A DNA stretch of 63,919 nt, the filler included, from Reclinomonas americana ATCC 50394 (taxonomy: Eukaryota): assembly GCA_048213135.1 (NCBI GenBank). It is 5 parts of 4 records of this genome, joined end to end, with 100 filler letters (N's around TTAATTAATTAA, not from the genome) between each part and the next. Parts side by side here need not be neighbours in the genome. Positions count along the whole stretch, not along the records: positions 16,366 to 42,869 come from PS015349.1; 4 more parts are not named here. One strand, given 5' to 3'. Position 1 is the stretch's first letter, and each line of letters opens with the position of its first letter. The notes beneath the pieces were generated by a model. It saw only the letters and a list, made by a program, of their open reading frames with translations. It had not been told where the DNA came from and ran no database searches. The position numbers and the translations under genes were made by a program. Positions 18,151 to 43,025 of this stretch are shown here, piece by piece.

Positions 18151-21100
18151 TCACAATAGTGAACATTTGCCTTTCTGCGATATGCGGGCTCGGTCACGAC
18201 GACGTCGGCACTCTGCCAGCCACTTGATGGCATCCACCGCAATCTGATCCTGTACACCAAACACCGCTCGCCGACCATCCACACACTCCACCAGCAGTGC
18301 CTCTGCCTCGGCCCATCGCTGCTGCTTCGTGAGCAGAATGCCGTAGTTGTACATCGTCTGCAAGGTGTATTCATGCCTGTGACCCAGCACTTCTCGCTGC
18401 CCCTCCACACAGCCAGGGTAAAAATCAGCAGCTTCGGCCAGTGATTTTTGTGTGCCTCGACCGGTGAGAGAAACAGCAAGATTGTGTATCGAAGCAAGAG
18501 TGTCTGGATGTCGATCTCCCAGCAATGCTCGCATGAACTGCAAACATTCTCGTTCCAGTTGAACCTTCTCCTCCCGGCGACTGTCATCTTGGATGCATGC
18601 GGCAAAATTGCCCATGGACAACAACGTGTCAGGGTGTTCAGCTCCAAGAACTAATCGTCGCATTTCCCAGCATCGTCTGTCAAGTGGCTCAGCATCAACA
18701 AATTGATTTCGATACTTGTGATACATAGCTTGCCAATGCAGCGTCGTCAACGAGTCCGGATGGCTCTCACCCAATGTCTCACACTGCCGCTCATGACACT
18801 GCACCAGCAGTGGCAAGTTGCCTGAATCGTAAGCGAACCACATCAAGCAGCGCAACGCGTCCACTTTATCCAGCACAGTTATCTCGCCACTGCTATCCCT
18901 CTCCCACACCTCGCACAAACGCCACGCCTGTTGCCACGCTACCTTGCGTTCATCCCACTGACGAAGCATGAAACTCAACCAAGCCCGACACTTTGACATC
19001 ACGACAGCGAACCGTCGTCGAACTGGACTCCATTCAACATCACCATCTCCACGTTGATCACACTCTGTATCTGTAACTTGTTGCAGAAGTGACGAGGCCT
19101 CTGTTTCGCCGAACCCGATTGATGGCACTCTACCAGCTGCACACTGCTCTCGAATCCATTCCACCGCCCCACACTGCACCAGCAGCCCATTCACACCAAC
19201 AACATCACTCGCCCACATGCCATCATCCTCACCCAACTGTCGCCACACTGTGTGCAGCACTCCGAGCAAGTCCCGTAACACGAACAGCACACCATCACTG
19301 TCATTCTGTGGATCAATACCATTCAGCACACAGCACACCAGTCGCACAACCAGTCGCTGCATCCGCGACACTACATCTCCACACCGTCCCGCAATCCACC
19401 CAGCAATCTCGTCGTGCACTCGATACTCCACCACCACGCCACCGCTTCCTCCCACAGGGTCACCACACAGCACACGGGCCACACTGTCCATGCTGCCACT
19501 GACACCCACTGTCACCAGATTCGACAAGCACAGACCCTCCAGCACATCCTCCACCCCTTCATCACCACCACTGCCCACCAACTAATTACGCCGAGCACGA
19601 ACTCTCTCCTCCTCTTCCTCACTCATCTCGTCAAACTGCAGTCGCTCACCCATCACCTCGGGTGCACGACGTCGCCTCTCCTGCGCCAGCTCATGCAATC
19701 GCAGTCGACACACACACTGACCCAACTCCACCAGTCGACTTGCAGCCTCCTCATCTTCATCCACTGCAGCCAGCTCGCCATTGCCACCACCCACAGCCAC
19801 TGTCATATCGGGAATCACTCGCAACACGCCCAGAGCCACTCGCGCGAGTGCCACTGTCACTGGCAAGCCGAGTTCCTTGCACGCCGTGATCAACACTAAT
19901 AGACGACGAGCTGCAGCTGTCTGTGACATCACATTGCGCTCCAGCAGCTGCGACAGCGCATCGCCACCAATACCACTCAGCACCTCCTCCAGTCGCGCTC
20001 CCACCAGCTGTGCTGGCGATTGCGACAGCAACCAGCTGCATGACGAGGAAGAAGAGAAATAAGACCTCTTCTTCGCACCAATCACTCTCACTCAATCACT
20101 CACCCAACACAAGCACTCACTCGCAGTGCACTCTTCTCCTGTTGTCCACTCTCCAGTGCCTCCACAATCCGTCGTCGCGCATCCACCGACACCTTGTGAA
20201 TCAGTCGCTCCTCCACCAGCTGCACAATATCCTCATTCTCCACATTCTCCACTCGCACACACTCCACCTCCGCCTCGTGCATCATCGAATCACGAATCTC
20301 ATCCGCCACCTGCCAATATCGACTCGTCACCACCACGATGGGTGCCACCATTCCATCTGAACACAGACACACACGTGATGGACATCAAGTCAGAAGCCAA
20401 CATCCAAGCAAGAATGAGAGAATTCTCTCACTTGACACAAACGCACCCCCATCAGCACACTGAACAACATTCCTCACTTGCTCCGCAGATCCCAGATTGT
20501 CCAGCACCATCACTCCACTCGATGCATGCATCAATTGTCGCAGCAGGCGACGCGCTGGCTCCACCTCACCACTCGCCAGCAGCGCATCCACCTGACCGGC
20601 CATCCTTCGTCCCTCCACTTCACCCACCCGCATCTGTGCCGTCACAAAGGCACGCAGACACTCGCTCAGAGCACTCTCCGCCTGCAGCATGACGAGAGGA
20701 AAAGAGTTAGAATGACAGGGAGATGAAGCAACATGAAGAGTCAACATGCATGTCCCTCATACACACCTTCACATGCTCCCTCGCATCACCCACATGACCA
20801 CGCATATCCACCGACACGGCTGATCCCCTCCATCGACGAGGGGGAGCCAGCAACTCGGTCACCAGCAGCTCGGCCAGGAACGACTTGCCAGTGCCGCCAT
20901 CGCCCGTCAGTACCACCATGATTGGATGATGTGCTGCGCAAGAATCATCCACCACATAAAACATGATGAGAAAAATGAATATGTAACGGGAAAGGAGAAT
21001 GAGAAGGAGCATCCAACCTTCCAGAGCATCCACAATGCGCGTGGCGAGTGAGACGGCCAGGGCACGCCGACTGGGGAAGCGGAACGTGGTCACTGGATTG

Positions 21101-22565
21101 ACAGTGCGCGCGATGAGCGGTGTCTTGGTTGGGCGACTGCTGTCCGGTGCTGTGTGGCAAAGAGAGACTGAGCAGAGGAATGCACATTCCAATGTAGGTC
21201 CATCATGGAACACACCTACAGCTGAGGGAGAAGTGGGCGAGATGCTCAATGTGTCAAGCCGCTGGTGCACACGCTCCATCTCCGCATGCATTTCCACACG
21301 CATCTGATAGATCACTTGCAAGTGAGAAACAGAAAGCCATCTGCAAGTGACCGCTGCTTCGTGACAATCCACTCGACCTGCTCCACATTTGCCGCTATCA
21401 ACACTTGGTCAGCTTGACTCAGTGCACCTGCATTTACACACAGCCAGACAGCATCAGCGTCCACAGTCAAGCAAATCATCCACACACATGCACCAGCCAT
21501 CACTCTCTTCACTCACCATCACGAGCCTCGTTCAGCTGCACCACCAATTCCTCCTCCACATCCCTGCCTATCTGCAGCCGCCGAACAAGCTGATGCAACT
21601 CGCCCTCTCCTCCTCCTCTGTCACCGAGCAGAGGCACAAAGAGTGCACTAGCTCGTGCAGGGTTCGCCTGCTCAAACACCTCCCTCATTCGCTCAATTGC
21701 ATTGCGCTGTGTGACAATGAGAGAGTGATAGGTACACTCGCACAAAGAGAGATCACACTCCTCCTCCTCCTTCTCATTCTCACACACTCACCACATCACC
21801 AGCTGGAATCAGACGATCAGGCTCGTCTCTCGGGTGCTCTCGATGACCCGCCAGCAGCAAGATCGTGCAGCACAGCATCGCATCAAACGAACTGCAGTCG
21901 TGCAGCTGGCCTCGCTGATGCCACTCGCGCACCAGCTGACGCTCCTTCTCGCTCAACTGGACACACATGTCCACTCCGTCTGGCATGGTGCTGCATGTGG
22001 GAAGAAGGCGCAAAGAAAGAGAGGATGCTGGTGAGTGAGGAATGTGTGTGACAACAAAGAGGAGACATTCATCGGAAAAGAATGTGGAATCGTGTGTGGT
22101 GAGACAATGAAGAGTGCGAGAGCGGGGAGAATGGGATGACCAGTGCAGTCACTATCTGCCTCTTGCTTGCGGCAATCATATCTCTTCTCTCATTCACATC
22201 TCCATTCTGCATCCTTGTCATTGTGTGCTTCCACATCCACCCCACACATACTCACCGCACATCACGCTCACTCGGCGCCTTGCACCAGGCAACGTGATTC
22301 ACATCGGGATACGAATCGAGAAACGCCGGCAGCACTTGCTCGAGTTTGGATTGCAGAGCGCGGGTGCATGGACGAGACAGGGCCTTCACAAGGCGAATCA
22401 TGTATTCCTCATCACCAGGATCGTGATGATGACTGCATGGGAGAGGAGAGAGAGAGAGAGAGTGAAAGAAACGAATTGCACACAATGTGAGAATGATGAT
22501 GCATCTGACAACAACACAATGAGAGAGACACGCAACTCACGCGGCACTCCACTCCCACTCGCCAT
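18151..22565 (-). pseudogene. NLR-like STAND protein copy 1 (HEPN-like/NB-ARC/TPR/CaaX CSLL), in-frame TAG at 19582-19584
   Basis: Walker A VVLTGDGGTGKS, Walker B VMVLDNLGSAEQV, sensor IVVVTSR, GLPVTVALA, and 4-5 LGxxHPDTL TPRs. GAG>TAG relative to copy 3 (RARRNELVG). Confidence 0.8.
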
Positions 22566-23026
22566 GATGATGCGTCACAACAAGGACAACAGCAAGCACA
22601 CTGACAGATGCACAGGGGAATGACACACGCTCTCTCTCTCTCTCTCTCTCTCTCTGTCACAATAAGAAGCGGAGAAATGCAACAACTCACTCTCCTTCTC
22701 TCCTTTCTCTCTCACACACACAGTGGGGAACAACGCTGATACAGAACAGAAAGAAGAACACACAAGCTCACTTCTGCTCACAGCAGCAGCAACAACAGAA
22801 CTTGTTGCCAACCAAACGAATGAACCACTGAAGTCAAGCCCTCTCTCTCCGTTCTCCGCTCTCATGTGCCGCGCCACTCATGACAGCGATGACGACGACG
22901 AAGAACCCGAATCACTGCTGGCACGCATTCACATGCACACACCTCCTCTTCCACCAATGCTACCCCGCCTCCTCACGTGCTGCTGCCTCCTCCTCCAGTG
23001 CTGCCACCAATGGTTTTTCTGTGTGC

Positions 23027-23068
<42 letters not shown>

Positions 23069-23138
23069 ATGAGAGAAGAGGATGCTGCTCTGTTCCACTG
23101 TTCCTTTCTCCCTCTCTCACTCTCGTTCTCTGACACAG

Positions 23139-24094
23139 TCTCGTCGACGGCATTGTCAGCGCCGCCTGCCTCGGCATCTTCTCATGGACAATCCTCTCGA
23201 TGAACCACGCGATCTTGACAACATGCATTCGAGCTTGGCCGAGTTGGTGATGTGCTTCCCCGAAGATCTTCAACCTGCTGGAGGACCTGGACGAGGTGCG
23301 TGCATCCGCGAGATCAGCAAGCGCACGCCTGAACTCGCGCAACTGGTGGTGTCTTCGGGTGCTCTCGGGAGTCATTGTCGACTACGTGGGCGAGACCAAG
23401 GGCAACAACCGCCTGCCGGGCATCATGTGACTCTCGGCTACATTGCCACCTTCTCCGACGCACTCGCACAACACGTGATTGCCAATGGCGGCGTGGTGCC
23501 GCTGGCGCAGGCGCTGGACTCGGAGAAGGAGGATCACCTGCGTGCGGCCGCCGCCTGGTCACTGAGTCAGATTGGTCGCCACTCGTCGGAGCACTCGAAG
23601 GCCGTGACCGACGCCGAGGTGTTGCCGCTGCTGCTCGACGCGTTCCTCGACCCGCAATCGTCGGACGACCTGAAGACCAAGGCCAAGCGCGCACTCAAGT
23701 CGGTGGTGCAAAAATGCCTCCACTTGCCGGCGCTGCAACCACTGCTCTCGCGCGCCCCCGTCAACATCCTCACACACGTCACTGGTCAGTACGCCAAGGT
23801 GCTGCCGGGCGATCGGACAGCAAGACGAGCATTTGTGTCGGATGGTGGTCTGGAGATGCTGCAGCGCATTTCCGAGCACGCACCCGAGGGCTCTGAGTTG
23901 CAGTTTCGTTGCTCTTCCTCACTGCTCTCCCACTCTCTTTGCTCGTGTGCTCATGATCATCATGCCCGTGTTACAGAAAGAACATTGACACAATCAACGC
24001 ATGCTACCCCGACGAGATTGTCAAGTACTACTCACCCGGCTTCTCCAAGAACTTTGACAAGCTCATTGACAACTACGCACCGCCACTCGAGTAA
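23139..24094 (+). pseudogene. SPAG6: Chimeric pseudogene: COA3-like exon 2 fragment fused to the C-terminal half of SPAG6/PF16 (copy 1)
   Basis: IREISKRTPELAQLVV, KGNNRLPGIM, EDHLRAAAAWSLSQIGRHS, SSDDLKTKAKRALKSVVQKC and LQ|KNIDTINACYPDEIVKYYSPG match SPAG6 armadillo repeats. The 5' part has frameshifts and the N-terminal half is absent. Confidence 0.88.
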
Positions 24095-24254
24095 TAATTA
24101 CCACGACAACAGCAGCAACAACGATAACAGAAGCTTGTTGGTTGTTGTTGTGAATGATTGTTCTTTTTTCCCGAGTAGTGAAGGCAATGAAATGTACATT
24201 GTTTCTGTCTGTGTCCTCTCTCTTGTTTGCTTGTTTGTTGAAGGAGATGTGGCG

Positions 24255-24635
24255 ATGCGCGACCGTCGAGTGCCACTCTCTCGCGTGTTGCAAGTGGCGA
24301 CTGTGATGCTCATGGCGATGCTCATCGTCTATGTGCTTGTTGTCACACAGAAGAGAGTTTCGTGTGTTGGTCTCGCAGTGTGTTTCTCTCTGTGCATGTG
24401 CTGACGCTGTTTGTTCTCTCTCTCCCTCTCTCTCCTTCTTCTTCTTCTTCTCTTCTTCTTGTCAGCGTGATAACGAGAATGTGACTGCGACCCTGCAGCG
24501 CACTGATGATGATGATGAGAATGATTGCGATGATGATCAAGTGGGATTTCCGTGGTCGCTGTTTGGGATGGACGAGTCGGCGACGCCTGTGCTGTTGAAG
24601 GCGCCGTTTGTTGCGGTGAGCTTGTTGGGATGCTT

Positions 24636-24670
<35 letters not shown>

Positions 24671-25136
24671 TCGNNNNNNNNNNNNNNNNNNNNNNNNNNN
24701 NNNNNNNNNNNNNNNNNNNNNNNNNNNNNNNNNNNNNNNNNNNNNNNNNNNNNNNNNNNNNNNNNNNNNNNNNNNNNNNNNNNNNNNNNNNNNNNNNNNN
24801 NNNNNNNNNNNNNNNNNNNNNNNNNNNNNNNNNNNNNNNNNNNNNNNNNNNNNNNNNNNNNNNNNNNNNNNNNNNNNNNNNNNNNNNNNNNNNNNNNNNN
24901 NNNNNNNNNNNNNNNNNNNNNNNNNNNNNNNNNNNNNNNNNNNNNNNNNNNNNNNNNNNNNNNNNNNNNNNNNNNNNNNNNNNNNNNNNNNNNNNNNNNN
25001 NNNNNNNNNNNNNNNNNNNNNNNNNNNNNNNNNNNNNTTTCCGGTGGTCGTGTTTGGGTAGTGGACGAGTCGGCGACGCCTCGTGCTGTTGTAGGCGCCG
25101 TTTCGTTGTCGGTGGTAGCGTTCGTTGGTAGTGTCT

Positions 25137-25174
<38 letters not shown>

Positions 25175-27115
25175 TGTCACTAAGTTTCTGTCTTCCTCAT
25201 TATCACTCTCCCTCTCTCCATCTCTGCTTCTCTGCATTGCCATCGCTGTCGCAGCTTCTCTTGCCTTCTGAGTGTTCCTCGCTCATGTGTTTCCCTTTCT
25301 TTGCATTCTCTGATCCATTCTCTGTGTCTCTGTTTCTGCATTTCACTCTCTTCTCTGTATTTCTCTGCCTGTTACTTGCTTCCCTCCCTCCTTGCGTGCT
25401 TATTACTTTCTTCCCTCTCACTCTTTCCCTTCCCTCATCCGTCCCCGCAGCCCATCAACACCAGCGACTGGCTGCTGGTGAGCGAGGACAGCGTGCGTCT
25501 GCAATCACCGCGATCGGGCGCCTCGCAAGTGTTGGTGGAGAAAGATGCAGTGTTGTTGAGCGACGGTGGCATGTGTGGCGTGACGTTGCAGCGGTTGCCG
25601 CATTTTGATTTGGTGCGTGTGTGAGGCGACGATTATGCTCTTGTCTCACAGATCACTGACGCTTTGAAATGCAGCCTGCCGACTTTTGTGTCGCGGCACC
25701 GATTCGAGCGCCTCGCAATCGACCGCACGAGTTGGGCTCCCCTGTCATCACCAAGGACGATGGTCGAGTCATGTGTCACGACAAAAGTGATCCTGTGCTC
25801 TCCTTTGTGGCCACGGTGCACAATGCGGTGCGTGAGGTGACTGTCAGGGAGTGAAAGGAACCGCTCCTCATGGCACGTTCCTCTCGCTCGCTGCTGGTGA
25901 CCCCAGATGGCAAGGTGTTCACTCGACAGCACATGTGGGCGTCGCATCGGCTGGACGGAGTCGATCGTGATGCGTCGTACTCGTGGAAGACCAGTGAATC
26001 GGTGCTGCTGGTCGACACAGTGGTATCATTGGTGCAGCATCACGGCGACACCTTCTATCACCTGCTGGGAGAGGTGCTTCCGCGCTTCATGCAGGTGTGG
26101 GACGTGGCGCGGGAGCACGAACCACATGCCCTGCTGCTCGTGCGCGACAATGCGTACGGATCGCACGTGGTGTATGACTATTTCGCACTGCTGGGCATTG
26201 GCAGAGACAGGGTGCGATGTGGTGTGCACAGCCTGTTCTTTGTTCGTAGGGAAGCTCATTCCTGCTGTGGCAGATCCTTCTGAATCCACCCGCAGTGTTG
26301 GCGCGACGAGTGCTTGTTGCGCAGGGTGTGCGAGGAGGCGCCGCGCAGCCTGCTCTGTTGCATGAAATGTCTCGCGTGTTTCACTCGCTGCATGGCGTGG
26401 CTTTGTGTTCGCAAGTTCAGGAATTTAGAAGCAGTTGCGTATCCTGAGCTTTGCTTGGTCGCCGGTGGGCATGGTCTCATCTTCGCGCCAGAACATGACG
26501 AAGAGTGGCGCCAATCTGCTCTCCACAATGGTCGCCCTCGGCGGTACGTGCTGGTCGTTCAACGGCCCGGCACTCGATCCCTGACCACGATGGAGAGAGT
26601 GTGTACTTCATCTTACCACACTTGTGCCTTCGTTGTCTCTGACGCTTCTGCGTCTTATACAGGTCCTGCAACTCATTGGCGAGGAGTTCCCGCACTGGCA
26701 TGTCTCCTCGTTCGACGCCCAGTCGGCACTGCACAGCGTGGCACAATTTGCTCGCAGCGACATTGTGCTGGGGCCGCACGGAGCGGCCTTTGCGCATCGA
26801 GCGTTTGTCGCTCGCCAAGACAATGGTGATCGACCGTGCTTTCATTTCGAAGTGTTGCCAGGGACTGGTCACACGCCGCCGAAAACGTGGAACCCAGTTG
26901 CGTAGCCTACTGGACGATCTTGTCGTGATATAGCAGCTGACTGGCTTGTGCAGGTGCACGTGATGATGGCCGCGTATCAAGGTTGCAGGACGTATTTGTG
27001 GTTTGACGAGAGAGCTGGCCTGCAGGATTCACTGGTGCTACCGGTGGCGCAAGCGCGCTGGCTGCTTCGTCATTTGGATGGGGAGTTGCGAGGGGAGGAG
27101 ATGACTGGCAGATAA
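24255..27115 (+). CDS. Glycosyltransferase family 61 (DUF563), type II membrane protein, copy 1
   Basis: N-terminal TM (VLQVATVMLMAMLIVYVLVV), TFYHLLGEVLPRF and ARSDIVLGPHGAAF, with about 8 introns. One acceptor reads CTG (25891-25893) where copy 2 has CAG. Confidence 0.8.
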
Positions 27116-27159
27116 GGGGCAGGAAGGACTAGGTTCTGGCGTGATCTTGGCGAGGTGTC

Positions 27160-27695
27160 TATGGATCTGTAGTCGGAGTAGCTCTGACTCGTCGAGGGGT
27201 GGGCAATGGCAATGTTGGCCATCCAGATATGCATTTGCTAAATTCGGAGTCGTCGAGTGTACCGATGACGCTGCTGGCCAGGGAAGTCGGAATCATGGGC
27301 ACAGGAGAAAGCTGGTACATTCTTCGTTCTGAGAAGAATATCGGCCTTGCTTGCATGTCGCCGGTGCCACGCAAGCATTAAGCAGGGCACACGACAGCTC
27401 GAAAGGACCGCGCGCTGTCCGAAGGCAAACAATCAAGTAGCTTCCAGTTGAAGGTTTATTTCCCGAGTCGTGTACGACCGCAGAAAACGCTATGCGTCTA
27501 TGCAAGTGCGTCAAATCCACTGGTCAACCACGCCTATGCGGTGAAGATCGCAGTTCTCGACTTGTTCGGAGCTCCGAGAGCGAANNNNNNNNNNNNNNNN
27601 NNNNCACACACAAGGAACCTGCTGCTGCCTCAAGATTGGTGTTTGTGTTGTTGTTTTGGATACTGTTGAACTTGGTCATCAAGACGGCTGTTGCT
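27160..27695 (-). pseudogene. Degenerate fragment of a Cys-rich (GCC2/TNFR-like) gene
   Basis: ATCKQGRYSSQNEECTSFLLCP* with flanking stops. Homologous to 36200-36700 and partly to 8320-8425. Confidence 0.35.
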
Positions 27696-27782
27696 TATTT
27701 GTTGGTGAATGAAGTTGTTGTTGTTGTCTCTCACGGCCAACGAGCAAACGACGTGACTGACATCGGATCGCACATAACTACT

Positions 27783-27903
27783 TTACATCAGTGAACATTT
27801 GCTTCTCTGCGGTCTTCTCTCGGAGGCGGCAACGGCATCAGGTGGCTGCTGCTGCTGCCGCTGTTGTTGGTGTTGCTGTTGCTGCTGCTGTTGCTGCTGC
27901 CGC

Positions 27904-27940
<37 letters not shown>

Positions 27941-30900: not shown

Positions 30901-32325
30901 GGCGACTGCTGTCCGGTGCTGTGTGGCAAAGAGAGAAGGGTGAGCACACACTCAATGCACATTCAATGCAAGTCCATCATGGAACACACCCGCTGCTGGA
31001 GATGAAGGAGGCGAGATGTTCAGTGTGTCAAGCCGTTGGTGCATGAGCTCCATCTCCGCGCGCATTTCCACACGCATCTGATCAATCGCATGCAAGTGAG
31101 AAACAAAGAGCAATCTGCAAGTGACCACATCTGCATGCATTCTCACTCAGCCTGCTCCACATTGGCTGCTATCGATGCCTGATCTGCTAGACTCAGCGCA
31201 CCTGCATTCACACACAAACAATCAGCATCAGCTTCCACATTCAATCAAATCATCCACAGACATGCACGAGCCATATCTCCTTCCACTCACCATCACGAGC
31301 CTCGTTCAGATGCACCACCAGTTCCTCCTCCACATCCCTGCCAATCTGCAGCTGCCGCACAAGCTGGTGCAACTCGCCCTCTCCTCCTCCTCCGTCACCG
31401 AGCAGAGGCACAAAGAGTGCACAAGCTCGTGCGGGACTCGTCTGCTCAAACACCTCCCTCATTCGCTCAATTGCATTGCGCTGTGTGACAATGAGAGAGT
31501 GATAGGTACACTCGCACAAAGAGAGATCACACTCCTCCTCCTTCCATCTCATTCTCACACACTCACCACATCACCAGCTGGAATCAGACGATCCGGCTCG
31601 TCTCTCGGGTGCTCTCGATGACCCGCCAGCAGCAAGATCGAGCAGCACAGCATCGCATCAAACGAACGGCAGTCGTGCAGCTGGCCTCGCTGACGCCACT
31701 CGCGCACCATCTGCCGCTCCTTCTCGTTCAACTGGACACACATGCCCACTCCGTCTGGCATGGTGCTGCATGTGGGGAAAGGCACAAAGAAAGAGAGGAT
31801 GCTGGTGAGTGAGGGAATGTGTGACAAGAAGGAGGGGCGATTCATCAGGGATAGAATGTGGAGACGAGCGTGGTGAGACAATGAAGAGTGCGAGAGTGGG
31901 GAGAAAGGGATGACCGGTGCGTCACCATCGGCCACTATCTTGGCAATCTTTTCTCTTCTCTCCCATTCACATCCATCTGCATCTTGCCATCGTGTGCTTC
32001 CCCATCCTTCCCACACACTCACCGCACATCACGCTCACTCGGCGCCTTGCACCACTCGGCGACGTGATTCACACCGGGATACGAATCGAGAAACGCCGGC
32101 AGCACTTGCTCGAGTTTGGATTGCAGAGCGCGGGTGCATGGACGAGACAGGGCCTTGACAAGGCGCATCGCACATTCCTCATCACCAGCATCGTGATGAT
32201 GACTGTGTGCGAGAGAGAGAGAGAGAGGAGAGTGACAGGGAACGAATCACACAAAATGTGAGAATGATGATGATGATGCATCTGACAACAACATACTGAG
32301 GGAGACACGCAACTCACGCGGCACT
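27783..32325 (-). pseudogene. NLR-like STAND protein copy 2 (polyQ, CaaX CSLM), 2-nt deletion frameshift at ~30347
   Basis: Same motifs as copy 1. ATGGCCGCAGGTGGAT versus ATGGCCGGTCAGGTGGAT (copy 1) shifts the frame before Walker B. The start codon falls in the gap at 32326. Confidence 0.8.
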
Positions 32326-32386
32326 NNNNNNNNNNNNNNNNNNNNCTGCCTCCACCGCCTTTGCTGCCACTAATGGGCTTCTGTGT

Positions 32387-32433
<47 letters not shown>

Positions 32434-32502
32434 AAGGAAGAAGAGGATGTTGCTCTATTCCTCCGTTCCCTTCACCCTCTCTCACTCTCCTCTCTCACAC
32501 AG

Positions 32503-33413
32503 CCTCGTCGGTGGCATGTACAGCACCGCCTGCCTCGGCATCTTCTCATGGACAATCCTCTCGATGAACCACGATGTTGACAACGTGCATTCGAGCTTGG
32601 CCGAGTTGGTGGTGATCTTAGTAAGATCTTCAACCTACTGATGGACCTGGACGAGGTGCCTGCATTTGCGAGATCAGCAAGCACACGCCGGAACTCGCGC
32701 AACTGGTGGTGTCGTCAGGTGCTCCGGGCGTCATTGTCGACTACGTGGGCGAGACCAAGGGCAACAGCCGCCTGCCGGGCATCATGAGACTCTCGGCTAC
32801 ATTGCCGCCATTCTCCGACGCCCTCGCACAACACGTGATTGCCACTCGGGGAAGGAGGATCACCTGCGTGCCTGGTCACTGAGTCAGATTGGTCGTCACT
32901 CGTCGGAGCACTCCAAGGCCGTCACCGACGCCGAAGTGTTGCCGCTGCTGCTCGATGCCTTCCTCGACCCGCAATCGTCGGACGACCTGAAGACCAAGGC
33001 CAAGCGCGCACTCAAGTCGGTGGTGCAAAAATGCCTCCACTTGCCGGCGCTGCAACCACTGCTCTCTCGCGCGCTCCCGTCAGCATCCTCACACACGTTA
33101 CTGGCCAGTACGCCAAGGTGCTGCCGGGCGATCGGACAGCAAGACGAGCATTTGTGTCGGGCGGTGGGCTGGAGATGCTGCAGCGCATTTCCGAGCACGT
33201 ACCCGAGGGCTCTGAGTTGCAGTTTCGTTGCTCTTCCTCACTGCTCTCTCTCACTCTCTTCTCCTCGTGTGCTCATCATCATGCCCGTGTTACAGAAAGA
33301 ACATTGACACGATCAACGCATGCTACCCCGACGAGATTGTCAAGTACTACTCACCCGGCTTCTCCAAGAACTTTGACGAGCTCATTGACAACTACGCACC
33401 GCCACTCGAGTAA
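32503..33413 (+). pseudogene. SPAG6: COA3-fragment/SPAG6 chimeric pseudogene, copy 2
   Basis: Homologous to 23139-24094 with additional deletions and a frameshift. Confidence 0.85.
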
Positions 33414-33589
33414 TGATTACCACGACGACAACAACAGGAACAGTAGCTTGTTGGTTGTTGTTGTGAATGATTGTTTCCTTTTTTTCCGAGAAGTGAAGGC
33501 AACGGAGAGTGCACATTGTTTCTGTCTGTGTCCTCTCTCTTGTTGTTTGTTTTGTTGAAGAAGATGTGGNNNNNNNNNNNNNNNNNNNN

Positions 33590-36116
33590 TCGTGCTGTTG
33601 TAAGGACGCCGTTTCGTTTGTCGGTGAGCTCTCTCTCTCTCTCTCCTCCTCCTCCTCTCTCTCTCTCTCTCCCTCTCTTTGTGCCTCCGCTTGTCACTGC
33701 TTCTGTCTTCCTCTTTATCACTCTCCCTCACTCTGTCTCTGCTTCATATTCTTCCTTCGCGCTCTCGCTCGCATTCCTCGCTGTCTATCTCACTCTCATT
33801 CTGTCTCTGCTTCTCTGCATTGCCATCGCTCTCGCAGCGTCTCTTGACTTCTGAGCCTTCCTTGCTCATATGTTTCCCTTCCTTGCCCTTCCATGGCATG
33901 CAATCCGCACTCTCATTATCTCACTGCATGTCACTCTGCTTCTCTGTATTGCTCTCTTTCTCTCTCTTTGTGCCTCTGCTCGGTACTTGCATCTCTTCCT
34001 CCTTGCATACTCATTACTCTCCTCCCTCTCACTCTTTCCCTTCCCTCCTCCGTCGCCCAGCCCATCAACACCAGCGACTGGCTGCTGGTGAGCGCGGACA
34101 GCGTGTGTCTGCAATCCCCGCGATTTGGCGCCTTGCAAGTATTCGTGGAGAACGATGCAGTGTTGTTGTATGACGGAAGCACTTGTGGCGTGACACTGCA
34201 GCAGTTGCCGCATTTTGACTTGGNNNNNNNNNNNNNNNNNNNNNNNNNNNNNNNNNNNNNNNNNNNNNNNNNNNNNNNNNNNNNNNNNNNNNNNNNNNNN
34301 NNNNNNNNNNNNNNNNNNNNNNNNNNNNNNNNNNNNNNNNNNNNNNNNNNNNNNNNNNNNNNNNNNNNNNNNNNNNNNNNNNNNNNNNNNNNNNNNNNNN
34401 NNNNNNNNNNNNNNNNNNNNNNNNNNNNNNNNNNNNNNNNNNNNNNNNNNNNNNNNNNNNNNNNNNNNNNNNNNNNNNNNNNNNNNNNNNNNNNNNNNNN
34501 NNNNNNNNNNNNNNNNNNNNNNNNNNNNNNNNNNNNNNNNNNNNNNNNNNNNNNNNNNNNNNNNNNNNNNNNNNNNNNNNNNNNNNNNNNNNNNNNNNNN
34601 NNNNNNNNNNNNNGTGTGTGTGAGGCGATATGATGTGCTCGTCTCCCGGATCACTGACGCTTAGAAGTGCAGCCTGCCGACTTTTGTGTCGCGGCACCGA
34701 TTCGGGCGCCTCGCAATCGACCGCACGAGTTGGGTACGCCTGTCATCACCATGGACGATGGTCGAGTCATGTGTCACGACAAAAGTGGTCCTGTGCTCTC
34801 CTTTGTGGCCACGGTGCACAATGCGGTGCGTGAGGTGACTGCAAAGGGAAGAGAGAGGAGCCTCTCCTCATACCATGTTCCTCCCGCTCGCAGCTGGTGA
34901 CACCAGATGGAAAGGTGTTCACTCGACAGCACATGTGGGTGTCGCATCGGCTGGATGGGGTCGATCGTGATGCATCGTACTCGTGGAAGACCAGCGAATC
35001 AGTGCTGCTCGTCGACACGTTGGTATCATTGGTCCAGCATCACGGCGACGCATTCTATCACCTGCTGGGAGAGGTGCTGCCACGCTTCGTGCAAGTGTGG
35101 AACGTGGTGCGGGAGCAGGAACCGCATGCCCTGCTCCTCGTGCGAGACAATGCGTATGGATCGCATGTGGTGTATGACTATTTCGCACTGCTGGGTATTG
35201 GCAGGGAACGGGTGCGATGTGGTGTGTATGGCCTGTTTTTTTACGTCGGAAAGCTCATTCTGGTTGTCGCAGATCCTTCTGAATCCCCCCACAGTGTTGG
35301 CGCGGCGAGTGCTTGTTGCGCAGGGCGTGCGAGGAGGCGCCGCACAGCCTGCGTTGTTGCATGAAATGTCTCGCGTGTTTCACTCGCTGCATGGCGTGGC
35401 TTTGCGTGCGCAGGTTCAGGAATTTCGAAGCAGTTGCGCATCCTGAGCTTTGCTTGTTCGCCAGTGGGCAAGGTCTCATCTTCACCACAGAGCATGACGA
35501 GGAGTGGCGCGAATCTGCTGTCCACAATGGTCGTCCTCGACTGTACGTACTGGTCATCCAACGACCGGGCACTCGAACCCTGACCACGATGGAGAGGGCA
35601 TGTACTTCTTCTCGCACTTATGCCTTCGTTGTCTCTGACGATTCTTTGTGTGTGGCACAGGTCCTGTCACTCATTGGCGAAGAATTCCCGCACTGGCATG
35701 TCTCCTCGTTCGACACCACTCGATCGGCACTGCACAGCGTGGCACAGTTTGCTCGCAGCGACATCGTGCTGGGGCCACACGGAGCGGCCTTTGCGCATCG
35801 TGCCTTTGTCGCGCGCCAAGACAATGATGATCGACCGTGCTTTCACGTGGAAGTGCTGCCAGGAACTGGGCACACGCCGCCGAAAACGTGGAATCCGGTT
35901 GCGTAGCCTTCTGGACGATTGTGTTCTGATTTAGCCGCTCATTGGCGTGTGCAGGTGCATGTGATGATGGCCGCGTATCAAGGGTGCAGCACGTATGTGT
36001 GGTTTGACGAGAGAGCTGGCCTGCAGGATTCGCTGGTGCTCCCGGTGGCACAGGCACGCTGGCTTCTTCGTCACTTGGATGGCGTGTCGCGACGCGAGGA
36101 GAGGGCTGGTGATTGA
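33590..36116 (+). CDS. Glycosyltransferase family 61, copy 2 (5' exons lost in gap)
   Basis: AFYHLLGEVLPRF, ARSDIVLGPHGAAF, WNP|VHVMMAAYQGC...AGD*. Canonical acceptors. Confidence 0.8.
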
Positions 36117-36199
36117 GGAAGTGAAAACCGGGCGTGCATCTGGCGATGTACCTGTGACCCACAGCGAGCCCGGGTGGCTTGCAAAATTGGTGCAGCACT

Positions 36200-36700
36200 G
36201 ACTTGTCGAGGGTGGGTAACGGCAAGGATTGACATCCCGACAACCAAGTGCTCGAGGCGAAGTCGTCGAGTGTACTGATGACGCTGCTGGCCAGGTAAGT
36301 CGGAATCATGGGCACGGGAGAAAGCCGTTACGTTCTTCGTTCTGAGAAGAATATCGGCCTTGCTTGCATGTCGCCGGTGCCACGCAAGCATTAAGCAGGG
36401 CACACGACAGCTCGAAAGGACCGCGCGCTGTCCAAAGGCAAACAGTCAAGTACCTACCAGTTGAAGAACTATTTCCCGAATTCGATGTGCCGTGTACGAT
36501 CGCAGAAAACGCTATGCGTCTATGCAAGTGCTTCAAATCCACTGGTCAACCACGCTTATGCGGTGAAGATCGCAGTTCTTGACTTGTTCGGAGCTCCGAG
36601 AGCGAACACGCACGCATAAGTAAACCTGCTGCTGCCTCAAGATTGGTGTTTGTGTTGATGTTTTGGATACGGTTGAACTTGGTCATCAAGACGGCTGTTG
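36200..36700 (-). pseudogene. Degenerate Cys-rich gene fragment, second copy
   Basis: ATCKQGRYSSQNEERNGFLPCP*, homologous to 27160-27695. Confidence 0.35.
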
Positions 36701-36801
36701 CTTGTTTGTTGGTAAATGATTTTGTTGTTGTTGTCTCTCACGGCCAACGAGCAAACGACGTGACTGACATCGGATCGCAAATAACTACTTCACATCAATG
36801 A

Positions 36802-39800
36802 TCATTTGCTTCTCTGCGATCTTCTCTCGGAGGCGGCAACGGCATCATGTGGCTGCTGCTGCTGCTGCTGTTGCTGCAGTTGTTGTTGTTGTTGTTGCTG
36901 CTGCTGTTGCTGATCACGGCGACGTCGACACTCTGCCAACCACTTGAGGGCACCCACCGCAATCTGATCCTCTTCACCAAGCATCGCTCGCCGACCATCC
37001 ACACACTCCACCAGCAGTGCCTCTGCCTCGGCCCATAGTTGCAGCTTCGTGAGCAGAACGCCATAGTTATACATTGTCAACAATGTTCTCCTCTGCCTGT
37101 CACCGAGCACCTCTCGTCGTCCCTCCAAGCACTCACGGTACAATTCAGCGGCGTCTGCCAGTGATTCTGGGGTGTTTTGCTGCTCGAGAGAACAAGCAAG
37201 ATTATTCATCGAAGCAAGAGTGTCCGGATGTCGATCTCCCAGTGATACTTGCCTCAAGCGCAAACACTCTCGGTTCAGTTGAACCCTTTCCACCAGGCGA
37301 CCGAAATCTCGGATACATGTGGCAATATTGTTCATGGAAGACAATGTATGGGGATGCTCAGCTCCAAGAATCAGTCGTCGCATCTCCCAGCATCGTCTAT
37401 CAAGTGGCTCAGCCTCAGAATACTGCTGTCGTTGATAGTGGTACTTGGCCTGTCGGAACAGCGTCCACAGCGAGTCCGGATGACTCTCACCCAGTGTCGC
37501 ACACTGCCGCTCATGACACTGCACCAGTAGCGGTATATTGAGTGAATGGTAAGCACACCACATCAAACACCGCAACGCGTCAATCCTGTCCAGCACAGTC
37601 ATCTCGCCACTGCCATCCCTCTCCCAATCCTCGCACAAATGCCATGCCTGTTGCCACGCAGAATTACACTCACCAGACTGACGAAACAACGCAAACAACC
37701 ACGCTCGACACTTTGTCACCACAATGGCAAACCGTCGTCGTACGTGACTCGATTCAACTCCACCAGCTACTGGTTCTGCACACACCCTCACACGAACCAC
37801 AAGCGAAGTGGCAACTGCTTTGTCGAATCCCACCGAAGGCAGACGTTGCATGCCGTATTGCTCACTAATCCACTCCACCGCCCCACACTGCACCAACAGT
37901 CCATTCACACCAACATTTCTCACCCACATGCCATTGTCCTCACCCAAACGTCGCCACACTGCGTGCAGTACATCGAGCAAGTCACGCGACACCAGCAGCA
38001 ATCCGTCACTGTCATTCTGTGGATCAATACCATTCAGGACACAACAAACGAGTCGCAAAATCAGTTGCTGCGCCCGTGACACTGCATCTCCACACCGTCC
38101 CACAATCCACCCAGCAATCTCGTCGTGCACTCGGTACTCCACCACCACACCACTCCCTCCCACCTGCTCGCCACACAACACGCGAGCCACACTATCTATG
38201 CTGCTACTGACACCCACCGTCACCAGAGTCGACATGCACAGACCCTCCAACACATCCTCCACTCCGCCGTCAACACCACCACCCACCAACTCATTACGGC
38301 GTGCACGCACTCGCTGCTCCTCCTCCTCACTTATCTCATCAAACTGCTGTCCCTCACCAACCATCTCAGGCGCACGCCTTCGCCTCTCCTGCGCCAGCTC
38401 ATGCAGACGCAGTCGACGCACACACTGGACCAACTCAACCAGTCGACTTGCCGCTTCCTCATCTTCACCAACACCATCCACAGCCACTGTCATATCGGGA
38501 ATCACTCGCAACACACCCAGTGCCACTCGCGCAAGTGCCACTGTCACTGGTAAGCCGAGTTCCTTGCACGCCGCGATCAGCACCAACAGACGACGTGCAG
38601 CTGCCGTCTGCGACATCACATTGCGTTCCAGCAGCTGCGACAGTGCATCGCCACCAATGTCACGCAGCACCTCCTCCAGTCGCGCTCCCACCAGTTGTGC
38701 TGCTGATTGTGACAGCAACCAGCTGCACGATGAACAAGGGAAGAGGAGAGAAGAGTGAGTCTTCCCATCCGCACCACTCTCACTCACTCACTGCACTCAC
38801 CCAACACAAGCACTCACTCGCAGTGCGCTCTTCTCCTGCTGTCCACTCTCCAGTGCCTCCACAATCCGTCGTCGCACATCCACCGACACCTTGTGAAGCA
38901 GTCGCTCCTCCACCAGCTGCACAATGTCCTCGTTCTCCACATTCTCCACTCGCACACACTCCACCTCCGCTTCGTGCGTCATCGAGTCACGGATCTCATC
39001 CGCCACTTGTCCGTATCGACTTGTCACCACCACGATCGGTGCCACCAGTCCATCTGCACACAGACACGCACAAGATGCACATCAAGTCATGATCCAACAT
39101 CCAAGCAAGGAGAACTCTCTCACATGACACGCACCCTCATCAGCACACTGAACAACACTCCTCACTTGCTCCGCAGATCCCACATTGTCCAGCACCATCA
39201 CCCCACTCGATGCATGTATCAGCTGTCGCAGGAGACGACGTGCTGGCTCCACCTCGCCACTCGTCAGCAGAGCATCCACTTGACCGGCCATCCTCCGTCC
39301 CTCCACTTCGTCCACTCGCATCTGTGCCGTCACAAAGGCACGCAGACACTCGCCGAGAGCACTCTCCGCCTGCAGCATGTGGCACGGACAAAGAGAGAGA
39401 GTTAGAATGACAGGGAGATGAAGCAACATGAATTACAACATGCACGTTCCTCAACACGCCTTCACATGCTCCCTCGCATCACCCACATGACCACGCATCT
39501 CCACCGACACGGCCGATCCCTTCCATTGACGAGTGACTTGCAACTCCGTCACTAGCAGCTCAGCGAGGAACGACTTGCCAGTGCCACCATCGCCCGTCAG
39601 CACCACCATGATTGGATGATGCGCTGTGCATGAATCATCCACCACAGACAACATGATAAGACACACGAATGTGGAGAGGGAAGAGGAGAAAGAGTAGGAA
39701 GCCCCAACCTTCCACAGCATCCACGATGCGCGTGGCGAGTGAGGCTGCCAGTGCGCGCCGACTGGGGAAGCGGAATGTGGTCACAGGATTGACGGTGCGG

Positions 39801-41241
39801 GCAATGAGTGCTGTCTTGCGTGGGTGACTGCTGTCTGGTGCTGTGTGGCAAAGAGAGAGTGAGCAGAGCAATGCACAATGCAATGAAGATCAACCGCGGA
39901 ACACACCTGCAGCAGAGGGAGAAGTGGGTGATATGCTTATTGTGTCAAGCCGTTGGTGCACACGCTCCATCTCACCACGCATCTGATCAATCGCATGCAA
40001 GTGAGAAACAGAGAGCCATCTGCAAGTGCCAGCCTCCTCACGCATCCTTACTCAACTTGCTCCATGTGTGCTAGCAGCAACGACTGGTCTGCTTGACTCA
40101 GTGCACCTGCATTCACACACAACAAAGGCAGCATCAGCTTTCACCTTCAATCAAATCACATACACACAAGCACGAGCCATCTTTCTCCTCCCACTCACCA
40201 TCACGAGCCTCATTCAGCTGCACCACCAATTCTTCCTCCACATCCCTGCCAACTTGCAGTCGCCGCACAAGCTGATGCAACTCGCCCTCTCCTCCTCTGT
40301 CTCCCAGCAGAGGCACAAAGTGTGCACGAGCTCGTGCGGGACTCGTCTGCTCAAACACCTCCCGCATTCGCTCAATCGCATTGCGCTGTGTGACAACGAG
40401 AAAGTGAGAGACATGATCCCAGAGAGAGATCACACTCCTCCTCCTCCTTCCATCTCCTTCTCATTCTCACACACTCACCACATCACCAGCTGGAATCAGA
40501 CGATCCGGCTCGTCTCTCGGGTGCTCTCGATGACCCGCCAGCAGCAGGATCGAGCAGCACAGCATTGCATCAAACGAGCAGCAGTCGTGCAGCTGGCCTC
40601 GCTGGTGCCACTCGTGCACCGTCTGCTGCTCCTTCTCGCTCAACTGGACACACATGTCCACTCCGTCTGGCATAGTGCTGCATGTGGGGAAAGGCACAAT
40701 GAAAGAGAATGCTGGTGAGTGAGGGAGGTGAGTGACAAGAAAGAGGGGGGATTCATCAGGGATAGAATGTGGAGACGAGTGGTGAGACGATGAAGAGAGG
40801 GAGAGCATGGAGAAAGGGATGCCAGTAATCTGCCATTTGCTTGTGGCAATCTTTTCTCTTCTCTCATTCTCTTCTCTCATCTGCATCTTGCCATCGTGTG
40901 CTTCCCCATCCTTCCCACACACTCACCGCACATCACGCTCACTCGGCGCCTTGCACCACTCGGCGATATGATTCACACCGGGATACGAATCGAGAAACGC
41001 CGGCAGCACTTGCTCGAGCTTGGATTGCAGAGCGCGGGTGCATGGACGAGATAGGGCTCTGGCAAGGCGAATCATGCATTCCTCATCACCAGCATCGTGA
41101 TGATGACTGCATGAGGAGGAGAGAAGGAGAGTGACAGGGAACGAATCAGACACAACGTGAGTATGATGCTGATGATGCATCTGACAACAACACAATGAGA
41201 GAGACACGCAACTCACGCGGCACTCCACTCCCACTCGCCAT
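36802..41241 (-). CDS. NLR-like STAND protein copy 3 (HEPN-like/NB-ARC/TPR/polyQ), apparently intact but with the CaaX Cys codon changed to TGA
   Basis: About 10 exons splice in frame from MASGSGVPR. Motifs VVLTGDGGTGKS, VMVLDNVGSAEQV, VVVTSR and GLPVTVALA, then TPRs. Ends AGC AAA TGA TCA TTG ATG TGA. One GC donor (HVK|gcgtgt). Confidence 0.8.
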
Positions 41242-41803
41242 GATGATGTGTCACAACAAGAAGAACAACAACAGCACACTGACAGATGCACAGGGGAATG
41301 ACACGCTCTCTCTCTCTCTCAGGCACAGTGAGAAGCGGAGAAATGCAACAACTCTCTCTCTCTTTCTCTCCTTTCTCTCTTGCTCACACACGGGGAATGA
41401 TACTGACACAGAACGAGAACAGAGAACACACAAGCTGACTTCTGCTCACAGCAGCAACAGCAACAGAACTTGTTGCCAACCAAACAAATGAACCACTGAA
41501 GTCCAGTCTCTCTTCCCTTCTCCGCTCTCATGAGCCGCGCCACTCACGACAGACGATGATGATGACGATGATGATGAACCCGAGTCACTGCTGGCACGCA
41601 AACGACACATTCGCATGCCCACGCCGCCTCTTCCACCAATGCTTCCCTCGCCTGCTCCCGTGCTGCTGCCTCCACCGCCAGTGCTGCCTCCAATGGGTTT
41701 GTCTGTGTGCACAGAGAGAGAGAGAGAGAGAGAGAGAGCAAGGAAGAAGAGGATGTTGCTCTTTTTCCTCTGTTCTCTCTCCCCCTCTCTTTCTCTGATA
41801 CAG

Positions 41804-42718
41804 CCTCGTCGGTGGCATTGTCAGCGCCGCCTGACTCGGCATCTTCTCATGGACGATCCTCTCGATGAACCGCGCGATCTTTCAGCGTGCGTTCGAGCTT
41901 GGCCGAGTTGGTGATGAGCTTCCCAAAGATCTTCAACCTGCTGATGGACCTGGACGAGGTGCCTGTGCATCCGCGAGATCAGCAAGCACACACCCGAACT
42001 GGCGCAACTGGTGGCGTCTTCGGGTGCTCTCTCGGAGTCATTGTCGACTACGTGGGCGAGACCAAGGGCAACAACCGCCTGCCGGGCATCATGTGACTCT
42101 CGGCTACATTGCCGCCTTCCCCGACGCCCTCGCACAACACGTGACTGCCACTCGGAGAAGGAGGATCACCTGCGTATCTGGTCACTGGGTCAGATTAGTC
42201 GCCACTCGTTCGAAGCACTCCAAGGCCGTGACCGACGCCGAGGTGTTGCCGCTGCTGCTCGATGCGTTCCTCGATCCGCAATCGTCGGACGACCTGAAGA
42301 CCAAGGCCAAGCGCGCACTCAAGTCGGTGGTGCAAAAATGCCTCCACTTGCCGGCGCTGCAACCACTGCTCTCGCGCGCTCCCGTCAGCATCCTCACACA
42401 CGTTACTGGCCAGTACGCCAAGGTGCTGCCGGGCGATCGGACAGCAAGACGAGCGTTTGTGTCGGATGGTGGTCTGGAGATGCTGCAGCGCATTTCCGAG
42501 CACGCACCCGAGGGCTCTGAGTTGCAGTTTCGTTGCTCTTCCTCACTGCTCTCCCTCAGTCTTTGCTCGTGTGCTCATGATCATCATGCCCGTGTTACAG
42601 AAAGAACATTGACACGATCAACGCATGCTACCCCGACGAGATTGTCAAGTACTACTCACCCGGCTTCTCCAAGAACTTTGACAAGCTCATTGACAACTAC
42701 GCACCGCCACTCGAGTAA
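41804..42718 (+). pseudogene. SPAG6: COA3-fragment/SPAG6 chimeric pseudogene, copy 3
   Basis: Homologous to the other copies, with frameshifts in the 5' part. Confidence 0.85.
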
Positions 42719-42913
42719 TGATTACCACGACGACAACAACAGTAGCTTGTTGGTTGTTGTTGTGAATGATTGTTTCCTTTTTTCCCGAGAAGTGAAGGCA
42801 ACGGAGAGTGCACATTGTTTCTGTCTGTGTCCTCTCTCGTGTTTGCTTGTTTTGTTGAAGAAGATGTTGNNNNNNNNNNNNNNNNNNNNNNNNNNNNNNN
42901 NNNNNNNNNNNNN

Positions 42914-42925
42914 TTAATTAATTAA
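42914..42925. other. Artificial contig linker TTAATTAATTAA
   Basis: Six-frame-stop linker flanked by N runs. Confidence 0.97.
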
Positions 42926-43025
42926 NNNNNNNNNNNNNNNNNNNNNNNNNNNNNNNNNNNNNNNNNNNNTCTCTCTCTTCCCCCTTTCTCTTCTCCCTCC
43001 TCATTCCCCTCTTGCCAGTGTACGC

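Follow-up and report, generated by a model that had tools for sequence, protein, structure and literature searches.

What kind of proteins does a tandem gene array in the protist Reclinomonas americana encode, and did those proteins ever carry a signal that would tie them to a membrane? The array lies at positions 18151-41241 of a stretch of 63,919 nucleotides, filler included, which joins five parts of four records of the R. americana ATCC 50394 assembly (GCA_048213135.1). This whole stretch is called the window, and its positions 16,366 to 42,869, which hold the array, come from PS015349.1. A sequence-only reading had described the locus as three tandem genes of about 10 exons for prenylated receptors of the nucleotide-binding leucine-rich-repeat-like (NLR-like) kind, with a HEPN-like N-terminus, a STAND-type NTPase, tetratricopeptide repeats (TPRs), poly-Q and a CaaX ending. 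We favour, at a probability of about 60%, the reading that the array is a lineage-restricted NB-ARC-TPR family of NLR-like genes, arranged as a birth-and-death tandem array of three diverged paralogues, with CaaX as the ancestral ending.

Three paralogues, referred to as copies 1, 2 and 3, were found on the minus strand within 18151-41241. Direct-repeat families occur three times across 18-43 kb at a spacing of 8.9-9.8 kb, and a tblastn search of the window with the spliced copy 3 protein returned exactly three copies and no others. Gene models were predicted from a three-way DNA alignment of the copies, in which the 5' halves aligned, in combination with GT/GC-AG sites and a splice placement that keeps the frame. 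Copy 1 is predicted to have 10 exons (22401-22256, 21990-21792, 21706-21517, 21427-21378, 21303-21216, 21149-21018, 20933-20767, 20681-20447, 20356-20104 and 20035-18151) and its frame is open save for one TAG. The 10 predicted exons of copy 2 (32171-32023, 31765-31567, 31480-31291, 31201-31152, 31077-30990, 30918-30787, 30691-30528, 30431-30199, 30117-29865 and 29790-27783) include a frameshift in exon 8. Copy 3, likewise of 10 predicted exons (41075-40927, 40677-40479, 40385-40199, 40106-40057, 39982-39907, 39840-39709, 39623-39460, 39369-39135, 39053-38801 and 38722-36802), has an intact frame of 1121 codons. Intron 1 measures 249-265 nt and introns 2-9 measure 66-96 nt. Fifteen of the 16 coding indels among the three copies are multiples of 3, whereas the length differences of introns are not, which supports the gene models. 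Together with the repeat families and the tblastn result, these models bear out the three tandem genes of about 10 exons that had been proposed.

Donor sites read GT in 16 of the 18 introns of copies 2 and 3. The other two, copy 2 intron 4 (31150-31151) and copy 3 intron 7 (39458-39459), have GC where the other copies have GT. GC-AG introns are a normal minority class, and these two are either such introns or cases of splice-site decay. A polypyrimidine tract with an AG acceptor lies 5' of exon 1 (41110-41200 in copy 3 and the equivalent positions of the others), and further upstream is a conserved short segment that ends in GTGAGT and has its own ATG out of frame with exon 1. This segment could be a 5'-untranslated exon or an upstream open reading frame; a further 5' exon is possible and the true start is uncertain. 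Coding GC content is about 55%, and the window contains 21 runs of N. The array is itself part of a three-gene segmental duplication of 9-10 kb, in which the repeat unit consists of the minus-strand NLR-like gene and two plus-strand genes, one ARM/HEAT-like and one without a Pfam match.

The NTPase is split across exons 7-9. A Walker A motif or P-loop, GDGGTGKS, is present in all three copies (39571-39594 in copy 3 and 20881-20904 in copy 1), followed by a Walker B motif, VMVLDN (39184-39201 and 20496-20513), and a sensor-1-like VVVTSR (39016-39033 and 20319-20336), the latter two being 29 aa apart in copy 3; all lie on the minus strand, and these three motifs of the earlier description were thus recovered at mapped positions. 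A protein search with the whole last exon gave 221 matches at E <=0.001, and among the matches listed (120 of 221) only the TPR part is aligned, with an identity of 29-42% and a query coverage of 22-51%. Fourteen proteins were taken from the matches of this search, 13 of them with a precomputed NB-ARC mark; after a Pfam rescan, the 13 proteins with NB-ARC at 4.8e-11 to 5.7e-4 were kept, P0039 was dropped as having no NB-ARC, and the region from NTPase to TPRs was cut out to make an NB-ARC-TPR profile. An hmmsearch of this home-built hidden Markov model (HMM) against the spliced copy 3 protein scored 19.3 bits with a collinear alignment, in which a pre-P-loop Arg, Walker A, Walker B (consensus 'VfDN' against VLDN) and sensor 1 (consensus 'VliTtR' against VVVTSR) fall in order. 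In the profile-profile comparison by hhalign, residues 226-720 of copies 3 and 1 matched the 13-protein profile with a probability of 94.9% in local mode (E 4.4e-8) and 96.3% in global mode (E 1.2e-9). As controls, the reversed query gave 0.1-0.2%, all 10 column shuffles gave 0.3% or less, and a profile of 12 kinase domains gave 0.2%. The STAND-type NTPase is therefore upheld by homology to NB-ARC-TPR proteins.

Other features of this module were less clear. The P-loop exon of copy 3 has weak Pfam matches to AAA_22 (6.6e-4), nSTAND3 (2.5e-3), NPHP3_N (6.6e-3), NACHT (0.03) and NB-ARC (0.15). The GLP motif of the sequence-only reading is present as ELGLPV (38545-38562 in copy 3), but it aligns with an 'IP' in the winged helix of the template and not with a GLPLA-type motif. 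RLRLHEL (38395-38415 of copy 3, minus strand, around aa 590) aligns with the template 'lH.L' in the global profile alignment and is a candidate for the MHD-like His of the winged helix; since the AlphaFold2 model there is of low confidence, with a predicted local distance difference test score (pLDDT) below 50, this assignment is inferred from the alignment only. RVHDEIAGW is a second candidate MHD-like site.

The TPR arm is the best-defined part of the proteins. About 4.5 repeats of the TPR_10/TPR_12, kinesin-light-chain type occupy 36927-37494 of copy 3 (minus strand), with repeats of the LGxxHPDTL type about 42 aa apart at 37081-37494. Pfam TPR_10 matched at 1.6e-31 in copy 2, 6.1e-27 in copy 3 and 5.9e-26 in copy 1 (90-108 bits against a cut-off of 27.5), and TPR_12 matched at 7.6e-20 to 2.7e-18, also above the curated cut-offs, while TPR_NPHP3 (2.8e-5 to 2.5e-3) stayed under its cut-off. 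With a 17-row alignment, AlphaFold2 modelled the TPR arm at pLDDT 82-97, the sole confident part of the model; the last exon of copy 3 modelled without an alignment reached a pLDDT of 43.6. Foldseek placed the TPR model nearest to the TPR domains of KLC1/2 (TMt 0.59-0.80) and the TPR-like repeats of Podospora (4y6c, TMt 0.78, and 4y6w). The TPR_10/12 repeats that had been proposed are thus confirmed by scores above the Pfam cut-offs and by a TPR fold model. A helical spacer of about 280 aa precedes the recognisable repeats. Its nearest clusters in a protein-language-model Atlas belong to TPR_10/12 families (0.95) and, in one case, to DUF7779 (0.91), suggesting as a lead only that the spacer may be degenerate TPR; a sequence search of PDB with exon 9 and the spacer returned chance-level matches only. 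As judged from these sequences, the array proteins are very probably STAND/TPR proteins.

Do the C-termini carry a prenylation signal? Copy 1 ends, after AAA, with TGT TCA CTA TTG TGA (18151-18165, minus strand), which reads CSLL* and is preceded by RRRRDRARISQKGK. Copy 2 ends, also after AAA, with TGT TCA CTG ATG TAA (27783-27797, minus strand), which reads CSLM* and is preceded by ERRPQRSK. The corresponding end of copy 3 is TGA TCA TTG ATG TGA after AAA (36790-36804, minus strand), so that its frame stops at the Cys codon and the old SLM* codons are still recognisable behind it; a single TGT-to-TGA change accounts for this loss of Cys. The CaaX rule calls for a Cys at -4 and an aliphatic residue at a2, with M, S, Q or A as X for farnesylation and L or F for geranylgeranylation. 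Two of the three copies have this pattern, with Cys at -4, an aliphatic a2 and L or M as X. The a2 Leu is retained through three different codons (CTA, CTG and TTG), and the stretches before the box in copies 1 and 2 provide 4-8 basic residues as a polybasic second membrane signal. The endings KCSLL* and KCSLM* thus read as claimed earlier. The tails are homologous, and therefore the ancestor of the array ended in K-C-S-L-(L/M); by common descent, the two CaaX tails count as one event. At the level of sequence, the ancestor very probably carried a canonical polybasic and CaaX signal; that this signal was actually prenylated has, in our estimate, somewhat less than an even chance.

A less ambitious account of the tails is that CSL[LM] does not function as a signal for prenylation and that a Cys arose at -4 by chance, once in the ancestor, at a low-complexity and fast-changing end. 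Indeed, no other part of the gene is as prone to indels as the tail: the polybasic stretch is followed there by a CAG/CAA poly-Q tract, counted on the translated tails as 30 Q in 33 aa in copy 2 (27846-27944) and 19 Q in 20 aa in copy 3 (36853-36912), both on the minus strand, and the indels of 126 and 45 nt there are both in frame. The poly-Q of the sequence-only reading therefore holds for copies 2 and 3 but not for copy 1, which has none. Copy 3 lost its Cys without any other visible change, and the three tails, a single evolutionary event, have no outside homologue that we found for comparison. However, among 121 database proteins only one has a Cys at -4. The box conforms to the canonical rule and follows 4-8 basic residues, and it outlasted a synonymous divergence (dS) of about 0.3 in copies 1 and 2 with synonymous changes at the a2 Leu. 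We regard a chance Cys as a doubtful account, though one to be taken seriously.

Each copy also carries one lesion. In copy 1, an in-frame TAG in exon 10 (19582-19584, minus strand) interrupts the protein at aa 638 of 1114, after the NTPase and before the TPR arm, at a codon that aligns with GAA in copy 2 and GAG in copy 3. In copy 2, a deletion of 2 nt in exon 8 (30346-30347, minus strand), also located by alignment, breaks the frame between the two Walker motifs. The lesion of copy 3 is the stop at the Cys codon. Two ways of reading through that TGA were considered. Selenocysteine was rejected, because Rfam matched neither a selenocysteine insertion sequence (SECIS) nor anything else in 35800-36900 and the roughly 3300 codons contain no further in-frame TGA. 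A variant genetic code was rejected as well, given that no copy has another in-frame TGA. The window is very rich in (GA)n and (CA)n microsatellites that often adjoin assembly gaps; the sequence around them may be of low quality, a point that matters for the reality of the three lesions.

Selection was then compared along the genes. Pairwise ratios of nonsynonymous to synonymous divergence (dN/dS) are 0.28-0.30 overall, with dS of 0.31-0.38 and an intron divergence of 0.20-0.24. By region, dN/dS is 0.12-0.18 in the NTPase exons, 0.21-0.25 in the N-terminal region, 0.27-0.30 in the spacer and 0.38-0.56 in the TPRs, so that the presumed sensor arm evolves fastest and the NTPase is the most constrained. 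A dN/dS of about 0.3 together with 15 of 16 indels in frame indicates that purifying selection acted on all three genes during most of the time since they diverged; the lesions must therefore be recent. Three diverged copies with one lesion each form the pattern of a lineage-specific tandem expansion with birth and death.

These data also bear on whether the genes are pseudogenes in decay, that is, a once functional family of which no copy works today and whose CaaX box is a relic. The TAG of copy 1, the 2-nt frameshift of copy 2 and the stop at the Cys codon of copy 3 are what such decay would leave, GC donors in copy 2 intron 4 and copy 3 intron 7 might belong to the same process, and no database protein corresponds to the array genes. 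On the other side, every pair has a dN/dS of about 0.3, pairs with copy 1 or copy 2 included, and values fall to 0.12-0.18 in the NTPase; together with the in-frame indels, these ratios require any decay to be very recent. Copy 3 retains a complete frame of 1121 codons, GC-AG introns are normal, and the draft is of uncertain quality. We therefore consider a wholly defunct family unlikely and retain the reading of an NB-ARC-TPR family in birth and death.

What lies at the presumed effector end is a separate question. Exons 1-6 encode a helical N-terminal region of about 265 aa that belongs to no recognisable family. It had been proposed to be HEPN-like, and a fuller version of this idea is that a DZIP3-like HEPN RNase effector is driven by the NB-ARC-TPR sensor and tethered to the membrane by prenylation. 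The helical N-terminus does contain FD..L....LL followed by an R-N-x3 motif, which we take to resemble DZIP3-type HEPN, and HEPN-STAND-TPR fusions in animals and an expansion in Capsaspora are described in the available portions of three papers (PMC3710099, PMC8260672 and PMC10236652). However, exons 1, 2, 3 and 6 of copy 3, tested one by one although the domain is split over exons, gave no match to HEPN_DZIP3 or any other HEPN family at E <=10; the only other match, of exon 3 to LSU at 0.077, is at chance level. The candidate site reads RNAIER without a His in all three copies, and no Rx4-6H occurs at one position in all three. The Atlas gave no usable match for exon 2, and the N-terminal 250 aa, compared by hhalign with the N-terminal domains (TIR, EAD1, DUF4062, NNH1 and others) of the 13 NB-ARC-TPR proteins, gave 1.2% or less. 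Exon-by-exon testing is weak, so that the result leaves HEPN unsupported but does not exclude it. The motif of the DZIP3/hRUL138 family is only 'mostly conserved' according to the part of PMC3710099 that was available, and inactive HEPN members are possible on that account. The HEPN claim thus found no backing, and we judge a HEPN effector, with or without a membrane tether, to be very unlikely.

Several results weigh against the reading of an NB-ARC-TPR family of NLR-like genes with an ancestral CaaX ending and explain why we do not hold it more firmly. Pfam NB-ARC (PF00931) remained below its gathering score: the P-loop exon scored 11.8 bits where 23.5 are required, and no other exon matched, in a weak test that used single exons only. 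The home-built HMM reached only 19-20 bits, and the AlphaFold2 model of the winged helix and spacer has a pLDDT below 50. A phmmer search with residues 1-760 of copy 3 against 120 fetched proteins found nothing. No relative of the 415 aa outside the TPRs was found among proteins of near length, HMMER with 414 aa of non-TPR sequence against 1.84 billion representatives gave one marginal match (3.9e-4), a search among longer proteins with an alignment of exon 9 revealed no relative, and among metagenome contigs none of 599 pattern matches was confirmed. As these searches yielded no relative for the parts outside the TPRs, the placement in a family depends on one profile comparison. As to an immune role, no 60-codon window has pN/pS above 1 and the maximum is 0.67, in the TPRs, a comparison of three sequences with low power; these values therefore lend no support to diversifying selection of the kind that immune sensors typically show. 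As to the tether, an intact frame and the CaaX Cys occur together in none of the three copies in this assembly. The three lesions are either real mutations or errors of a gap-rich draft. The prenylated NLR of the sequence-only reading therefore keeps its ancestral CaaX signal, but copies 1 and 2 are frame-broken and the sole intact frame, that of copy 3, lacks the Cys. Because each copy carries one defect, a membrane-tethered receptor is to be regarded as a possibility only.

The array was also set against known systems. Fungal and bacterial NB-ARC-TPR STAND proteins, namely the fungal NLR-like proteins with TPR_10/12 and the actinobacterial TPR ATPases of the FxSxx-COOH-system and AfsR types, have the same order of N-terminus, NTPase, winged helix or spacer, and TPRs. 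They share with the array a 'DN' Walker B and a T[ST]R sensor 1, the profile match is 95-96%, and the TPR fold is nearest to kinesin light chain and the Podospora repeats. Unlike them, the array has exons that miss Pfam NB-ARC, an N-terminus that resembles neither TIR, EAD1, DUF4062 nor NNH1, a long unmatched spacer, only about 4.5 TPRs, and a poly-Q and CaaX tail. Ectocarpus NB-ARC-TPR genes have one exon per TPR, whereas all TPRs of the array lie in one exon. In the available text of the Acanthamoeba genome paper, an NB-ARC-TPR homologue of A. castellanii is presented as a candidate receptor and the Ectocarpus NB-ARC-TPR proposal is cited (PMC4053784). These candidate pattern-recognition receptors, which did not appear among the matches of our searches and were compared by description only, are likewise NB-ARC and TPR genes of a eukaryotic microbe and an alga, and that text contains no mention of CaaX (PMC4053784).

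In animals, DZIP3-type HEPN is fused to TPR, NACHT, CARD, DEATH, LRR and other domains, and DZIP3/hRUL138 is expanded in Nematostella, oyster and Capsaspora, as stated in the accessible sections of PMC3710099. Corresponding portions of two further papers describe many HEPN-NACHT proteins in cnidarians, where NB-ARC proteins mostly have TPRs (PMC8260672, PMC10236652). The DZIP3-type HEPN-NACHT or NB-ARC-TPR genes of cnidarians, oyster and Capsaspora are like the array in being lineage-specific tandem expansions of effector-STAND-repeat genes, as far as those three sources go (PMC3710099, PMC8260672, PMC10236652). The array differs in that no HEPN was detected and its NTPase resembles NB-ARC-TPR more closely than NACHT; no CaaX is described for the DZIP3-type proteins in the same portions. 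Since effector-STAND-TPR proteins and NB-ARC-TPR proteins of microbial eukaryotes already appear in the parts of PMC3710099 and PMC4053784 that were available, both are known kinds. The combination had been put forward as one not known to be described, and, as far as our searches of the literature go, this holds for the CaaX tail alone but not for the domain layout. Among the papers listed in these searches for a CaaX-ended or prenylated NB-ARC or NLR protein, none deals with such a protein as judged by title and abstract, and in one of the searches all those listed are on small GTPases or NLRP3.

Nephrocystin-3 (NPHP3) offers another comparison, as it also has a P-loop NTPase followed by TPRs of the kinesin-light-chain type and is lipid-modified and membrane-associated. 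NPHP3 carries a myristate at its N-terminus instead of a prenyl group at its C-terminus. By analogy, the array proteins might be a non-immune, lipid-anchored STAND/TPR scaffold, a switch in signalling or trafficking. Weak matches to NPHP3_N (6.6e-3) and TPR_NPHP3 (2.8e-5 to 2.5e-3), TPRs that are closest to the cargo-binding TPRs of kinesin light chain, the lack of a recognised death or effector domain and purifying selection throughout are all compatible with such a role. However, the NPHP3 matches are below the Pfam cut-offs, and both the 'DN' Walker B and the collinear profile match point to NB-ARC-TPR proteins. NPHP3 is a single conserved gene, whereas here a tandem array is decaying, and NLR-like clusters usually combine tandem duplication and pseudogenisation with a C-terminal arm that evolves faster. 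A scaffold of this kind is therefore rather improbable, and we keep to the NLR-like NB-ARC-TPR family.

If that family assignment is right, a protein of the array would begin with the helical N-terminus of about 265 aa, presumably the signalling or effector end, and continue with an NB-ARC-type STAND NTPase that has an intact P-loop, an 'hhhhDN' Walker B typical of NB-ARC-TPR proteins and a TSR sensor 1. The helical spacer of about 280 aa and about 4.5 TPRs, the presumed ligand-sensing arm, would follow, and the C-terminus would consist of a polybasic stretch, poly-Q in copies 2 and 3 only, and, in the ancestor, the CaaX box K-C-S-L-L/M. By analogy with other STAND switches, binding of a ligand to the TPR arm might lift autoinhibition, exchange of ADP for ATP might lead to oligomerisation, and the oligomer might gather the N-terminal domains for signalling. 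Together with the basic residues before it, a farnesyl group (X = M) or a geranylgeranyl group (X = L) would keep the sensor end attached to a membrane. All of this, from the switching and the sensing by TPRs to prenylation and any part in immunity, is inferred.

NB-ARC-TPR proteins are, to our knowledge, the least understood branch of NLR-like proteins, and their cellular site of action is almost unknown. Plant and animal NLRs reach membranes by N-terminal acylation or by pore-forming domains. A prenyl anchor beside the sensor arm, if true, would be a different solution from theirs; it would point to a receptor that surveys a membrane surface, for example that of the phagosome or the plasma membrane, and would offer a simple experimental handle through Cys-to-Ser substitution and prenyltransferase inhibitors. 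The array ancestor could even be one instance of a recurrent design in free-living microbial eukaryotes, in which NB-ARC-TPR proteins are prenylated at the C-terminal sensor end and form a class of membrane-tethered NLR-like receptors with a new N-terminal effector, a generalisation that we think distinctly unlikely. The case for a prenyl anchor is only half complete: an ancestral signal of canonical form is there, yet no copy in this assembly has both the Cys and an intact frame. The array also provides a clean, small example of birth and death with graded constraint, tight in the NTPase and loose in the TPRs.

The two neighbours in the duplicated unit, which span 22600-27700, 32300-36700 and 41300-43000, are both on the plus strand. 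The ARM/HEAT-like gene (23073-24404, with further copies near 32642-33558 and 41835-42917; repeat families D1 and D3) has weak matches to HEAT_2 (1.1e-4) and Arm (3.3e-4), and parts of its three copies are 93-97% identical. The second neighbour (25855-27115, with a second copy near 34834-36116) corresponds to repeat families D14-D16 and D19, with two copies each at about 89-90% identity, and Pfam matched no family in it; its two copies are about 90% identical. Both neighbours are more alike between copies than is the NLR-like gene in its last exon (61-87%).

Elsewhere in the window, three tandem proline-rich repeats of about 150 aa, with Pro runs like those of formin FH1, lie at 11400-12800 on the plus strand and adjoin a large N gap; Pfam matched nothing in the one repeat searched. 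The genes to either side in the window look ordinary. They include an SNF2-related helicase at 2213-5400 (plus strand, 1.2e-5), an RNA methyltransferase of the NOP2/RsmB type at 47865-49190 (plus strand, 5.3e-11) and a MAP-kinase-like protein kinase at 58666-59307 (minus strand, 8.4e-24).

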